A stretch of DNA of 64,000 bases, taken from Escherichia coli (GTDB lineage Bacteria > Pseudomonadota > Gammaproteobacteria > Enterobacterales > Enterobacteriaceae). Location of the stretch: the NCBI RefSeq assembly GCF_030384885.1, contig NZ_CP128613.1; one strand, given 5' to 3'. This document shows positions 43,101 to 46,100 of the stretch, piece by piece. Numbering within the stretch: the first letter of the stretch is position 1; each line of letters opens with the position of its first letter. Position numbers: made by a program.

Positions 43101-46100
43101 GAGCGCATGGGGATTGTTCGATTTCTGGAACTGGCTGCAAAACGGCGCGGGGCAGAGAACCGTAGATATCCTGATCCGTATCGCACTCATTCTTTTCTTC
43201 TCGGCGGTTGGCTGGACGGTGCTCGCCAGTTTGATCGAAAACCGGCTGGCTTCGGATATTCATGGCCGCCCGCTACCCAGCGCCCGTACGCGTACCCTGC
43301 TGACGCTGTTCCGTAACGCGCTGGCGGTGATTATCAGTACCATCACCATCATGATTGTGTTGTCGGAAATCGGCGTTAATATCGCGCCATTGCTGGCAGG
43401 TGCCGGGGCATTAGGTCTGGCTATCTCGTTTGGTTCGCAAACGCTGGTGAAAGATATTATCACCGGGGTATTTATTCAGTTTGAAAACGGCATGAACACT
43501 GGAGATTTGGTGACTATCGGGCCGTTGACCGGCACTGTGGAACGGATGTCGATTCGCTCCGTGGGCGTACGCCAGGATACCGGGGCGTATCACATCATTC
43601 CGTGGTCTTCGATTACCACCTTTGCTAACTTTGTCCGCGGCATTGGTTCGGTAGTGGCAAATTATGATGTTGATCGCCATGAAGATGCTGATAAAGCCAA
43701 TCAGGCACTGAAAGATGCGGTAGCGGAATTAATGGAAAACGAAGAAATTCGCGGGTTGATTATCGGTGAACCGAACTTTGCCGGGATTGTCGGCTTAAGC
43801 AATACCGCATTTACACTGCGTGTTTCGTTCACCACGCTGCCACTCAAACAATGGACGGTCCGCTTTGCCCTCGACAGCCAGGTGAAAAAACATTTCGACC
43901 TGGCGGGCGTTCGCGCGCCAGTGCAGACTTATCAGGTGCTGCCTGCTCCGGGCGCGACCCCGGCTGAACCGTTGCCGCCGGGGGAACCAACGCTTTAACG
44001 CTGGCGATTGACAAAACGGCGGCGCTGCTCGTCGTTCATAAAGGTCCAGGCAATAAAGCGGCTCTGCTTTTGCCCCTGGGCCATCTCTTTTTTGACCACT
44101 TTCACCGCGCCCACGTCCGTCAGAGCACGATACAACGGCGGTAAGTTTTCGCCACGAGATACCAGCGAGGTAAACCACATCACCTGCTTCGCGAAGCCTT
44201 TGCTCTCTTCAATCATCTTTTTGATAAAAGCGACTTCACCGCCTTCACACCACAACTCCTGTTGCTGACCACCAAAGTTCAATGCATCGTCTGTGTTCAG
44301 CCCCAGATTACGCCGTTTACGCTCACTACCCGCCCGTGCCGCAGCGGCGGAATCGTGGAATGGCGGGTTACACAAGGTCGCGTCGTATTGCTCGTTTTTG
44401 TGGATAATACCGTTAAAAATCGCCCCGCTCTCTTTTTGCCGACGCAGACGAATGGCGCGATTAAGCCCCGGATTAGCGCTGATGATCGCCTGCGCGCTGC
44501 TTAACGCCTGGCTGCTGGTTTCACTACCGGTAAAACGCCAGCCGTATTCATGTACGCCAATCAGCGGATAAATACAGTTCGCACCAACGCCGATATCCAG
44601 AATGCTGGCATTAGCTGGAATTGTTCCTGTTGCTTCTGCCAGTAAATCGGCAAGGTGATGAATGTAATCTGCCCGACCTGGCACTGGCGGGCAGAGAAAA
44701 CCGTCCGGGATATCCCAGTTCGCTACGGCGTAAAAATGGGCCAGCAACGCCTTATTGAGCGCCTTCACCGCCAGCGGATTGGCAAAGTCTACGCTTTGCT
44801 CCCCGGCAGGTGTAAGCGTGAGGAATTGCCTGAGTTCAGAATTGACCTGACAAAGCGTGGCAAGATCGTAGCGGCTGTGATGACGGTTGCGCGGATGCAA
44901 CCCCGGTTTCTGGGCGGACATAGCATTCTCCTTTAAGCAGCGGCGTAAGATACCCGCATAACGCGACAGGGTAAATATCTGGCTGCGTTTATCATTCCCC
45001 AAAACCTTAACATGGCTATGGTTTACGGCAATTCATCATAAAAATCAGCATCATGCATGTCATTGATTTGTCTTATTTTGTAAAAATATATCGTTCAAAA
45101 AACAAGCACATCTCTGTCAATTTTTTGCGTCATTTTCATCGTCCAGGCGACCTACACTTATCAGGCACTACCCGTTGTATTTATGAGGATGTCATTATGA
45201 AAAAGTGCCTCACACTACTGATTGCCACCGTCCTGAGCGGAATCTCTCTCACGGCTTATGCCGCGCAACCGATGAGTAACCTGGACAGCGGTCAGCTACG
45301 GCCCGCCGGTACCGTTTCGGCAACTGGCGCATCAAACCTAAGCGATCTGGAGGATAAACTGGCAGAAAAAGCGCGCGAACAAGGCGCGAAAGGTTATGTC
45401 ATTAATTCCGCGGGCGGAAATGACCAGATGTTCGGTACTGCAACCATCTACAAATAACCCCACCAACGTAACTGCATTCGCCTCTGGATGCAGTTTTCGC
45501 CTGTTTTGTAATCAAAAAACATCAAATATGAACGCAATGTAAATAAATGTATTTCTTTTTCGCGCAATGGGTGATAGAAAATCGCGCCAAGTGATAATGC
45601 TTATCAAAATTATTATCACTTGCACGAACGCTATCACGGGATTAACAGTGGCATCGCATCCGCAGAGAGGCTTTCTCGTGACAGTGAAAATTTCAACATA
45701 TAAGAAAAAGTTACCTGCAAAATGGAAAACAATCGCAATTTCCCTGCCAGACAATTTCATTCGCTCACGTTCTTTGCCGGTCTTTGTATTGGCATCACGC
45801 CTGTGGCACAGGCACTCGCTGCCGAAGGGCAAGCTAACGCGGATGACACGCTGGTTGTCGAAGCATCAACGCCTTCGCTTTACGCGCCACAACAATCTGC
45901 CGATCCGAAATTCTCGCGTCCGGTAGCAGATACTACCCGCACGATGACGGTGATTTCTGAACAAGTGATTAAAGATCAGGGTGCAACCAACCTTACCGAT
46001 GCGCTCAAAAACGTCCCCGGCGTGGGTGCGTTTTTTGCTGGTGAGAACGGTAACTCCACCACTGGCGACGCCATTTATATGCGCGGTGCCGATACTTCTA

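Follow-up and report, generated by a model that had tools for sequence, protein, structure and literature searches.

Organization of the ybiO/rlmF Junction

In the 64,000-nucleotide stretch of Escherichia coli DNA analysed here (hereafter, the window), the genes for a mechanosensitive channel and a 23S rRNA methyltransferase converge and share the nucleotides of their stop codons. The features at this junction are as follows.

41773..43998, + strand: ybiO coding sequence, 741 aa, MscS-family mechanosensitive channel (open reading frame and translation, NF008542, RefSeq)
44921..43995, - strand: rlmF (ybiN) coding sequence, 308 aa, 23S rRNA m6A1618 methyltransferase (open reading frame and translation, NF008725, RefSeq)
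43995..43998, no strand assigned: shared TTAA tetramer, a 4-nt tail-to-tail overlap of stop codons (sequence, annotation, comparative series)

Read directly from the sequence, positions 43995-43998 are TTAA, such that the TAA stop of ybiO occupies 43996-43998 on the + strand and the TAA stop of rlmF is the reverse complement of 43995-43997. YbiO matches the NCBIfam equivalog NF008542 over its entire length (1-741 of 741; 1562.6 bits, cut-off 596), and RlmF matches the equivalog NF008725 (452 bits, cut-off 302). The latter profile ends at RlmF residue 294 and, therefore, the final 14 residues of this protein represent a non-conserved tail. The first-pass annotation, which had named the two genes ybiO and rlmF and had proposed that TTAA supplies TAA stops on both strands of a convergent pair overlapping by 4 nt, is borne out on each of these points by the sequence, the open reading frames, the equivalog matches and RefSeq. 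The identical 4-nt overlap is annotated in RefSeq both in K-12 MG1655 (rlmF, 842332..843258, +; ybiO, 843255..845480, -) and in the closest genome (NZ_CP098223); the phage-like island and the IS200 copies of the latter genome are absent from the window. The locus thus contains a tail-to-tail pair of coding sequences in which one tetramer serves as a stop on each strand. Existing annotation includes the shared stop, and the pair has been catalogued before as having overlapping transcripts, so that there is nothing new in the overlap as such.

An error of annotation or sequence, whereby one of the genes would stop elsewhere and the TTAA would not be used by both, is extremely improbable. Such an error could be suspected from a single E. 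coli assembly (JNE082640), in which ybiO is annotated 4 codons longer owing to a 1-nt change in a G5 homopolymer. Against it, both open reading frames have full-length equivalog matches, identical gene ends are annotated across E. coli, the position of the stops is the same in different genera, bases 1 and 4 varying only in ways that keep both stops, and loss of the stop would lengthen ybiO by 89 codons or rlmF by 20 codons, as computed from the sequence.

Convergent 4-nt Overlaps and the Evolution of the Junction

Given that two stop codons on opposite strands cannot overlap by 1-3 nt, 4 nt is the minimum length of a convergent overlap. Only four tetramers, TTAA, CTAA, CTAG and TTAG, permit such an arrangement, as pointed out by Lillo and Krakauer (2007; PMC2174442), and the distribution of overlap lengths jumps at 4 nt, which is the modal class of convergent overlap in the literature; from the tables of that study, we calculate that 672 of the 1890 convergent overlaps (36%) are 4 nt long, the remaining 1218 being of at least 5 nt. 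The same work counted 58 convergent overlaps in E. coli, and it also discusses the terminator problem that such pairs face and the existence of terminators predicted inside the partner gene. The ybiO/rlmF pair, whose two real genes have their stops interlocked within one of these tetramers, shows no essential difference from this class. Another instance is present within the window, where gstB (8278-8904, +) and yliI (8901-10016, -) have a common CTAA at 8901-8904, and, of 11 convergent junctions in the annotation of the closest genome across this stretch, 2 are of the 4-nt type. The ybiO/rlmF overlap is not a rare event.

The 4-nt arrangement is fixed in E. coli and is kept in a large block of Enterobacteriaceae. 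Of 5426 complete E. coli genomes, 5415 contain a 40-nt probe sequence spanning the junction, in every case within genes annotated as ybiO and rlmF, and the TTAA is unchanged in the most divergent E. coli copies that were inspected. Stop and indel turnover also occurs inside the species: in strain JNE082640, a 1-nt deletion in the G5 run extends the overlap to 17 nt. Across the 71 Enterobacteriaceae species with convergent rlmF and ybiO that make up our comparative series, the junction varies between an overlap of 38 nt and a gap of 58 nt. The 4-nt overlap is found at the unchanged position in 32 species, as CTAA in 17, TTAA in 8, CTAG in 5 and TTAG in 2, with an invariant central TA; only bases 1 (T/C) and 4 (A/G) of the block vary, both stops are kept, and the changes at these two bases leave the last amino acid encoded by the partner gene unaltered. 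Longer overlaps are of 6 nt (three species), 11 nt (twelve), 26 nt (one) and 38 nt (two), the stops abut with 0 nt between them in seven species, and the genes are separated by gaps of 2-8 nt in five species and by gaps of 34-58 nt with REP-like palindromes in nine.

Unlike E. coli, in which the junction lacks any spacer, several lineages carry a spacer hairpin at the same place, reminiscent of the bidirectional hairpin terminators and REP palindromes that lie between convergent genes. In Enterobacter, Leclercia and Silvania, rlmF faces ybiO across a 34-58-nt spacer with a hairpin, whereas in Kluyvera and Pantoea, ybiO is absent and rlmF faces glnQ over ~40 nt, with an A-run, a hairpin and a short T stretch in the Kluyvera spacer and a hairpin in that of Pantoea. 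The REP-like palindromes at the spacer junctions come without U tracts. The convergent adjacency of rlmF and ybiO is retained in 71 of the 80 sampled loci, and rlmF has stayed at the locus in E. albertii and Kluyvera, where ybiO was lost or deleted.

The pattern of these variants suggests that the overlap originated through neutral turnover of stop codons and indels in the non-conserved C-terminal tails of both genes, which have probably been closely packed since the early evolution of Enterobacteriaceae. We consider it fairly probable that the junction represents a commonplace case of two real genes overlapping tail to tail by 4 nt, a judgement that applies jointly to the whole explanation, that is, the ordinary overlap together with this proposed origin and the 3' ends proposed below. 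The shared stop itself matters very little and is a textbook outcome of genome compaction; the junction is of use as a clean worked example of how convergent junctions evolve within one family, encompassing all four legal tetramers, overlaps lengthened by frameshift, abutting stops and palindrome insertions.

A Hairpin and U-Rich Run Embedded in rlmF

Because there is no intergenic DNA between the two genes, each mRNA must enter the coding region of the other gene. The suggestion of the first-pass annotation that there is no room for a terminator between them thus holds as far as the intergenic space, which is zero, is concerned, but a candidate terminator, a hairpin followed by U6, lies further on, inside rlmF. 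It consists of two parts.

44043..44082, + strand: hairpin in ybiO-sense RNA, antisense to rlmF codons 280-293, GGUCCAGG-CAAU-AAAGCG-GCUC-UGCUUU-UGCC-CCUGGGCC, a candidate stem of an intrinsic terminator or a 3'-end stabiliser (fold, synonymous constraint)
44083..44094, + strand: U-rich tail AUCUCUUUUUUG after the hairpin, with U6 at 44088-44093, antisense to rlmF codons K277, K278, E279 and their neighbours (sequence)

The whole element (44043-44094) is located 45-96 nt past the ybiO stop, within rlmF codons 276-293. With -20.8 kcal/mol for the 50 nt preceding the T6 run, the fold is the most stable among those of the 88 runs of at least six T on both strands of the window, and a stable G+C-rich stem-loop of the kind found in intrinsic terminators is thus present shortly past the ybiO stop. 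The stem comprises 14 pairs interrupted by two 4-nt internal loops, and U6 begins 5 nt past the stem, within the tail, a non-canonical geometry. The 40-nt hairpin alone is more stable on the ybiO-sense strand (-19.3) than on the rlmF-sense strand (-15.3), where it sits 15 codons ahead of the rlmF stop and is followed by UUUAUGAACG; the A tract upstream and U tract downstream of a bidirectional terminator are accordingly not both in place.

A scan of positions 41400-45400 for consensus terminators and promoters found nothing near the junction, and an Rfam scan of 41000-46000 at E<=1 returned no matches. The consensus terminator scan requires a loop of 3-8 nt and is blind to an interrupted stem. 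No similar embedded element was found at the other 4-nt pair in the window, gstB/yliI.

Terminators embedded in a convergent neighbour are of a known kind (PMC2174442; PMC12288877). Similarly to intrinsic terminators located inside a downstream convergent coding sequence, the ybiO element combines a stable stem-loop with a U-rich run soon after the stop codon, overlaps codons of the partner gene and appears to constrain their synonymous sites. It differs from a typical intrinsic terminator in the two internal loops of the stem, the distance of 5 nt between stem and U6, and the lack of a mapped 3' end.

Constraint on Synonymous Sites of rlmF

Compensatory covariation of the hairpin was not found: 91.8% of the cells are paired, the score of 0.036 falls within that of slid controls (0.022-0.043), and where helix 1 varies, the pairs simply break. 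Given that covariation support is absent, we relied on synonymous-site constraint instead. In the 50 species with overlapping genes, the element is the gene-wide minimum of rlmF synonymous diversity, with an observed to expected ratio of 0.52 (0 of 5000 permutations); the ratio is 0.44 (2/3000) with one species per genus and 0.51 (0/3000) for columns at least 95% conserved. The constraint follows the predicted structure, with a synonymous diversity of 0.30-0.38 at the wobble sites of the stems compared to 1.00 at those of the loops (exact test, 13/495; 1/330 with columns at least 95% conserved), that is, the structure-consistent evolutionary constraint expected of an intrinsic terminator. The codons of the U-run (K277 K278 E279) are at 0.23 of the expected diversity in the overlap species versus 0.67 in the other species.

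The constraint is relaxed in the group of 27 species whose stops abut, which carry a spacer between the genes or which lack ybiO; the values for this group are 0.81, 0.93 and 0.67, and both the pairing and the stability of the hairpin drop. This contrast between overlap and other species is confounded by phylogeny because it rests on few lineages (Enterobacter/Leclercia, Atlantibacter, Kluyvera and Pantoea). Judging from the sequence comparisons, the element at 44043-44094 appears to be under purifying selection at rlmF synonymous sites.

Ends of the ybiO and rlmF Transcripts

We favor, by a modest margin over even, the possibility that ybiO transcripts end at the embedded hairpin and AUCUCUUUUUUG (44043-44094), or are trimmed back to this element and stabilised there. 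The wobble positions of rlmF codons 277-293 would then carry the 3'-end signal of ybiO. The element might also act not as a terminator but as a 3'-end stabiliser after Rho-dependent termination.

The alternative that neither gene has a dedicated 3'-end element, with transcripts ending diffusely by Rho, collisions between RNA polymerases or decay, and with the hairpin and U6 constrained for other reasons, such as a role in the folding or translation of rlmF mRNA, a codon preference within a conserved motif or a signal at the DNA level, appears rather unlikely but carries appreciable weight. It is consistent with the mapping data: the Term-seq study of Adams et al. (2021) reports no 3' end and no Rho-termination region within K-12 842300-843999, its tables, including the Rho regions of Supplementary file 2, have no entry named ybiO, rlmF or ybiN, and ybiO/rlmF are not named in the TERMITe supplements, so that the RNA 3' end at the U tract that marks an intrinsic terminator is missing from both sources. 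The low expression of ybiO may explain this. The same alternative agrees with the non-canonical geometry of the element, which the consensus scan missed, with the lack of compensatory changes, with the fact that the element encodes an 18-residue motif, a conserved part of RlmF, and with the stretches of C over G past both stops, those on the ybiO read-through (C/G up to 3.5) being at the 98th percentile. It does not readily account for the difference between stems and loops inside one conserved motif, for the inclusion of the U-run codons in a gene-wide minimum of diversity, for the relaxation in species that have a spacer hairpin or no ybiO, or for the stronger fold on the ybiO-sense strand; nor does it explain why the gstB/yliI pair has nothing similar.

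The rlmF transcript, which reads into ybiO as antisense RNA, encounters two features of potential relevance.

43958..43983, - strand: hairpin CCCCGGC-N12-GCCGGGG in rlmF-sense RNA, 11-37 nt past the rlmF stop, without a U tract (inverted repeat and fold; no evidence of function)
43644..43799, - strand: C-rich, G-poor stretch on the rlmF read-through RNA, +196 to +351 past the rlmF stop, a putative Rho loading region (C/G in 78-nt windows)

The C/G ratio of the rlmF read-through is ~2.0 in 78-nt windows over this stretch and reaches 2.27; it is at the 73rd percentile relative to the antisense read-through of 41 long open reading frames of the window and is not distinctive; therefore, we regard this composition as only a faint hint of Rho. 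No constrained element that could serve rlmF was detected in the 3' end of ybiO, where synonymous diversity from residue 690 onwards is as expected (observed/expected 1.00). In the absence of a comparable element inside ybiO, the untranslated antisense read-through of rlmF is most likely ended diffusely by Rho or decay, a suggestion we make tentatively. The hairpins at 43958-43983 and at 43900-43921, the latter with a U6 9 nt further on, were considered as rlmF terminators and rejected, the ybiO tail being unconstrained.

Antisense Transcription and the Excludon Hypothesis

Because the coding sequences overlap, the ybiO and rlmF mRNAs are antisense to each other at their 3' ends. Thus, the antisense 3' overlap that had been put forward as possible follows from the gene arrangement itself, and it agrees with published RNA-seq data: rlmF-ybiO is among the 165 convergent excludons called by ExcludonFinder in half or more of 58 RNA-seq samples from MG1655 (2025; PMC12288877), and for 146 of these 165 pairs, the same work predicts terminators that lie within the adjoining transcription unit. 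In the ybiO/rlmF pair, the overlap involves the coding sequences themselves, beyond the UTRs. The excludon concept implies mutually exclusive expression, of which the published gene-level read counts for ybiO/rlmF give no clear sign.

A functional excludon of the type described for the mscL-arfA pair (PMC10070815) could be envisaged here, with induction of ybiO (by RpoS or NaCl) leading to read-through RNA and converging polymerases that repress rlmF, or the reverse, by way of interference between the two transcription processes and cleavage of the RNA duplex by RNase III. We consider this scenario improbable. The pair is on the ExcludonFinder list, its convergent adjacency is widely kept, ybiO is RpoS-dependent and is reported to be NaCl-induced (PMC3508906), and antisense reads are present for both genes. 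In an excerpt of Table S1c of Huang et al. (2020), the sense/antisense values, in RPM, are 10.6/2.8 in the wild type, 12.0/1.8 in rnc-14 and 16.0/3.7 in rnc-38 for rlmF (ybiN), and 29.8/4.5, 23.1/3.4 and 15.7/6.4, respectively, for ybiO. Against the scenario, the changes in these rnc mutants are modest and inconsistent, the whole-gene antisense reads of ybiO and rlmF are comparable to the values of several other genes there, and the pair is absent from the portion of the p19 dsRNA cluster tables of that study that was covered. Furthermore, antisense read-through would be limited rather than promoted by the constrained, terminator-like hairpin and U6 that follow the ybiO stop, synteny is conserved in Enterobacteriaceae generally, and the loss or deletion of ybiO in E. 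albertii and Kluyvera occurred without rlmF leaving the locus. Transcriptional interference, which the first-pass annotation had also raised, is no more than a possibility; both genes are weakly expressed, whole-gene antisense reads are low in absolute terms, and there is no evidence that the overlap regulates ybiO or rlmF.

The similarity with mscL-arfA extends to the convergence of a mechanosensitive-channel gene on a translation-related or ribosome-related gene, to complementarity at the 3' ends, and to occurrence in Enterobacteriaceae. In that system, the mscL 3' UTR (+1 to +64) is complementary to the 3' part of the arfA coding sequence, and deletion of arfA raises mscL mRNA more than twofold (PMC10070815). 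The effect on mscL was thus shown by deletion of the partner, whereas the rnc data on ybiO/rlmF show no clear effect.

Potential Roles of the Embedded Element

By analogy with mscL-arfA, one could imagine a dual-use element that encodes a conserved RlmF motif and forms the 3' end of ybiO, and whose strength would tune RpoS- or salt-induced read-through antisense to rlmF, making the pair a true excludon; we give this possibility little credence. If true, it would link expression of an osmotic-stress channel to 23S rRNA m6A1618 methylation, and selection on the element would be expected to relax upon gain of an intergenic hairpin or loss of ybiO. The less demanding interpretation, to which we lean slightly, is confined to a 3'-end signal of ybiO that is embedded in rlmF and under selection; missing intergenic space can then be compensated by a terminator-like signal at synonymous positions of the gene next to it. 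Such an element, once confirmed, would call for caution in the synonymous recoding of rlmF and in the annotation of the ybiO 3' end.

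Gene ends and the shared stop

The tetranucleotide TTAA at positions 43995-43998 of the window is common to a plus-strand ORF ending at 43998 and a minus-strand ORF ending at 43995:

41773-43998, plus strand: ybiO, 741 aa, real ATG start
44921-43995, minus strand: rlmF, 308 aa, real ATG start

Both assignments are well over the cut-offs of the respective NCBIfam equivalogs, NF008542 for the mechanosensitive channel gene ybiO (1562.6 bits, residues 1-741 of 741) and NF008725 for the 23S rRNA methyltransferase gene rlmF (452 bits). The two stops interlock and intergenic DNA is absent, as the first-pass annotation had it; RefSeq agrees, with an identical 4-nt overlap in K-12 MG1655 (rlmF 842332..843258 +, ybiO 843255..845480 -) and in the closest annotated genome, NZ_CP098223.1. 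Without its stop, the ybiO frame of the window would run on for 89 codons, and that of rlmF for 20. The 1-kb junction is present in 5421 of 5426 complete E. coli genomes, which identifies the window as E. coli chromosome, and a 40-nt junction-spanning probe is found in 5415 of the 5426, with ybiO and rlmF annotated every time. In the most divergent E. coli copies inspected, the TTAA is unchanged.

Stop codons (TAA, TAG, TGA) cannot share 1, 2 or 3 bases with reverse-complemented stops (TTA, CTA, TCA), so 4 nt is the minimum convergent overlap; directly from the code, it is permitted by TTAA, CTAA, CTAG and TTAG only, the same four tetramers named by Lillo and Krakauer (2007; PMC2174442). In that survey, which includes 58 E. 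coli convergent overlaps, the distribution of convergent overlap lengths jumps at 4 nt, and 1218 of the 1890 tabulated convergent overlaps are at least 5 nt long, so that 672 (36%) are exactly 4 nt. The ybiO/rlmF overlap belongs to this known class and is real, yet not unusual. A second case in the window is gstB (8278-8904 +) and yliI (8901-10016 -), with CTAA at 8901-8904, and the 11 convergent junctions in the same stretch of the closest genome measure 246, 139, -4, 110, 122, 249, 178, 46, -4, 46 and 40 nt.

The junction across Enterobacteriaceae

We placed both stops in 80 rlmF loci from species-representative genomes. Convergent rlmF and ybiO are neighbours in 71 Enterobacteriaceae species, of which 32 have the 4-nt overlap, including Escherichia, Citrobacter, Salmonella, Pseudocitrobacter, Trabulsiella, Yokenella and Superficieibacter. 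The tetramer in these is CTAA (17), TTAA (8), CTAG (5) or TTAG (2); the central TA is invariant. Substitutions affect only bases 1 and 4; they leave both stops intact and are silent in the final sense codon of the partner gene (CGT/CGC Arg of rlmF, CTT/CTC Leu of ybiO). The overlap has become fixed in E. coli, and related genera keep it at the same position.

Longer overlaps are of 6 nt (three species, Klebsiella oxytoca group), 11 nt (12 species, Kosakonia, Pseudescherichia and others), 26 nt (one) and 38 nt (two). The stops abut in seven species (Atlantibacter, Cedecea, Siccibacter and others) and are 2-8 nt apart in five. Gaps of 34-58 nt occur in nine species of Enterobacter, Leclercia and Silvania (loci L028, L034, L044, L045, L053, L055, L057, L058 and L073), each holding a G+C-rich REP-like palindrome without a U tract, e.g., GCCGGGTAAGGCGAAGCCGCCACCCGGC.

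In Kluyvera and Pantoea, ybiO is absent and rlmF converges on glnQ over about 40 nt:

about 4925-4970 in L023, L024, L027 (Kluyvera) and L076 (Pantoea): rlmF-glnQ spacer

The Kluyvera spacer combines an A-run, a hairpin and a short T stretch, a shape like that of a bidirectional intrinsic terminator, and the Pantoea spacer contains a hairpin. In E. albertii NBRC 107761 (L007, about 4925-5040), a remnant of ybiO of about 100 nt lies between rlmF and glnQ, with the TTAA retained. A similar remnant is seen in a soil MAG (L056), and some lineages can evidently do without ybiO.

The NCBIfam profile NF008725 extends only to residue 294 of RlmF and so leaves out the final 14 residues, which reach the TTAA and are, by this measure, non-conserved. 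This tail (codons 295-308; 43995-44036) also differs in length and sequence between genera, and stop turnover therefore occurs in a dispensable part of the protein. In E. coli JNE082640 (L083, NZ_AP027206.1 4039536-4039691), a G5 run 14 nt upstream (equivalent to 43980-43984 of the window) is one G short, and the shifted ybiO frame continues past the TTAA until it meets a TAA within rlmF; the overlap becomes 17 nt and the annotated product 745 aa. This is either a longer overlap caught in the making or a homopolymer sequencing error. The junction series fits the model of stop-codon and indel turnover favoured for convergent overlaps (PMC2174442).

A candidate 3' end element inside rlmF

The first-pass annotation concluded from the absence of intergenic DNA that there is no room for a terminator between the genes. 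A consensus scan lists no terminator near the junction, and an Rfam search of the region gave no match. RNA folding reveals a candidate hairpin and U-run inside rlmF, 45-96 nt past the ybiO stop (rlmF codons 276-293):

44043-44082, ybiO-sense RNA: interrupted hairpin, GGUCCAGG-CAAU-AAAGCG-GCUC-UGCUUU-UGCC-CCUGGGCC
44083-44094, ybiO-sense RNA: U-rich tail, AUCUCUUUUUUG, directly after the hairpin

The 50 nt upstream of its T run fold at -20.8 kcal/mol, more stable than the equivalent fold at any other of the 88 T runs (six or longer) that the two strands of the window contain. The hairpin is weaker on the rlmF-sense strand (-15.3, versus -19.3 on the ybiO-sense strand), where A·C mismatches replace two G·U pairs. 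For gstB/yliI, no hairpin with a U-run was found within 200 nt of either stop; a 4-nt overlap therefore does not by itself bring with it an element like that of ybiO.

In a codon alignment of 77 rlmF sequences (76 loci and the window), synonymous diversity reaches its gene-wide minimum in the 14-codon stretch 277-291, with an observed/expected ratio of 0.65 in all sequences (17/5000 column permutations) and 0.52 in the 50 with an overlap of at least 4 nt (0/5000). Among overlap species, wobble positions are at 0.38 of expectation in the stems, 1.00 in the loops and 0.23 in the U-run codons K277/K278/E279. The reduction persists when each genus is represented by a single species (0.44, 2/3000) and when the columns are limited to those at least 95% conserved (0.51, 0/3000; exact stem-versus-loop test 1/330). 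The constraint is largely relaxed in the 27 species whose stops abut or that have a spacer hairpin or no ybiO (stems 0.81, loops 0.93, U-run 0.67), and there the rlmF minimum falls elsewhere. The hairpin retains 13.8 and 12.8 of 14 pairs in overlap species (mean ΔG about -19.5 and -17), compared with 11.3-12.2 (about -12 to -14) in the others, and is degraded in the species with 34-58-nt gaps.

Several features weigh against terminator function: no compensatory covariation was found in the hairpin, its geometry is non-canonical (two internal loops in the stem, U6 beginning 5 nt past it), and the contrast between overlap and other species rests on few lineages. On balance, we lean slightly toward the view that ybiO mRNA 3' ends are made here, where they would form through intrinsic termination or trimming back to a protective stem.

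On the opposite side, the last ~50 codons of ybiO carry no synonymous constraint (observed/expected 1.00), which leaves the two hairpins that closely follow the rlmF stop (43958-43983, and 43900-43921 with U6 9 nt further) unsupported. From +196 to +351 the rlmF read-through RNA has more C than G, to an unremarkable degree (73rd percentile); rlmF read-through might end within ybiO by Rho or decay, a suggestion we make only weakly. Elsewhere in ybiO, synonymous diversity is marginally lower at about 42781-42831 (codons 337-353) and about 43297-43341 (codons 509-523), with ratios of 0.66 and 0.73 (permutation 54/2000), the former stretch adjoining a terminator-like hairpin and T-rich site from the consensus scan (42768-42783, +).

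Transcript overlap and its possible consequences

The overlap is already known, from annotation and from a published list: ExcludonFinder places rlmF-ybiO among 165 MG1655 convergent excludons, each detected in 50% or more of 58 RNA-seq samples (PMC12288877), with yliI-gstB also listed and overlapping terminators predicted by TransTermHP for 146 of the 165. The earlier proposal of antisense overlap is thus borne out for the transcripts, which do overlap according to this work, but the regulatory cross-talk between ybiO and rlmF that the excludon concept implies is unsupported and, in our view, very improbable. By the values for these genes in Table S1c of Huang et al. (2020; PMC7373196), sense/antisense RPM in WT, rnc-14 and rnc-38 are 10.6/2.8, 12.0/1.8 and 16.0/3.7 for ybiN (rlmF) and 29.8/4.5, 23.1/3.4 and 15.7/6.4 for ybiO; expression is low and so, in absolute terms, is the antisense signal; the shifts in the rnc mutants are modest and inconsistent. 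Expression of ybiO is reported to be RpoS-dependent and NaCl-specific, with too little protein to detect (Edwards et al., 2012; PMC3508906). In the Term-seq and Rho tables of Adams et al. (2021; PMC7815308), nothing is listed under ybiO, rlmF or ybiN or with a K-12 coordinate in 842300-843999, the closest minus-strand 3' ends being 841454 and 845561, and the TERMITe supplements mention neither gene.

A terminator inside a convergent neighbour is a known kind of arrangement, to which the candidate ybiO element is comparable; of the pairs studied functionally, mscL-arfA (PMC10070815) is the nearest analogue. The new detail here is only the statistical evidence for a candidate ybiO 3' end element inside rlmF that appears to be selected and dual-coding.

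Neighbouring DNA

The glnQ-ybiO spacer is 116 nt long in the window (41657-41772) and 260 nt in K-12, which has an extra REP/BIME insertion of about 144 nt directly after the glnQ stop. Common to both is a hairpin (about 41664-41689), CCUCCCUUUC(C/A)CCCGAAAGGGAGG, the site of the 'orphan' Term-seq 3' end 845561(-) of K-12 (Adams et al., 2021). Here, about 80 nt before the ybiO start codon, the glnHPQ transcript probably ends. Against NZ_CP098223.1 the window aligns colinearly at 96-99% identity; it lacks that genome's two IS200 copies, some 1.5 kb surrounding a DUF1479 gene and, between ybiB and hcxB, an island of about 10 kb that resembles a filamentous phage. The sites of these differences in the window are:

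29620-29682
32587-32593
36384-36398
50911-50937
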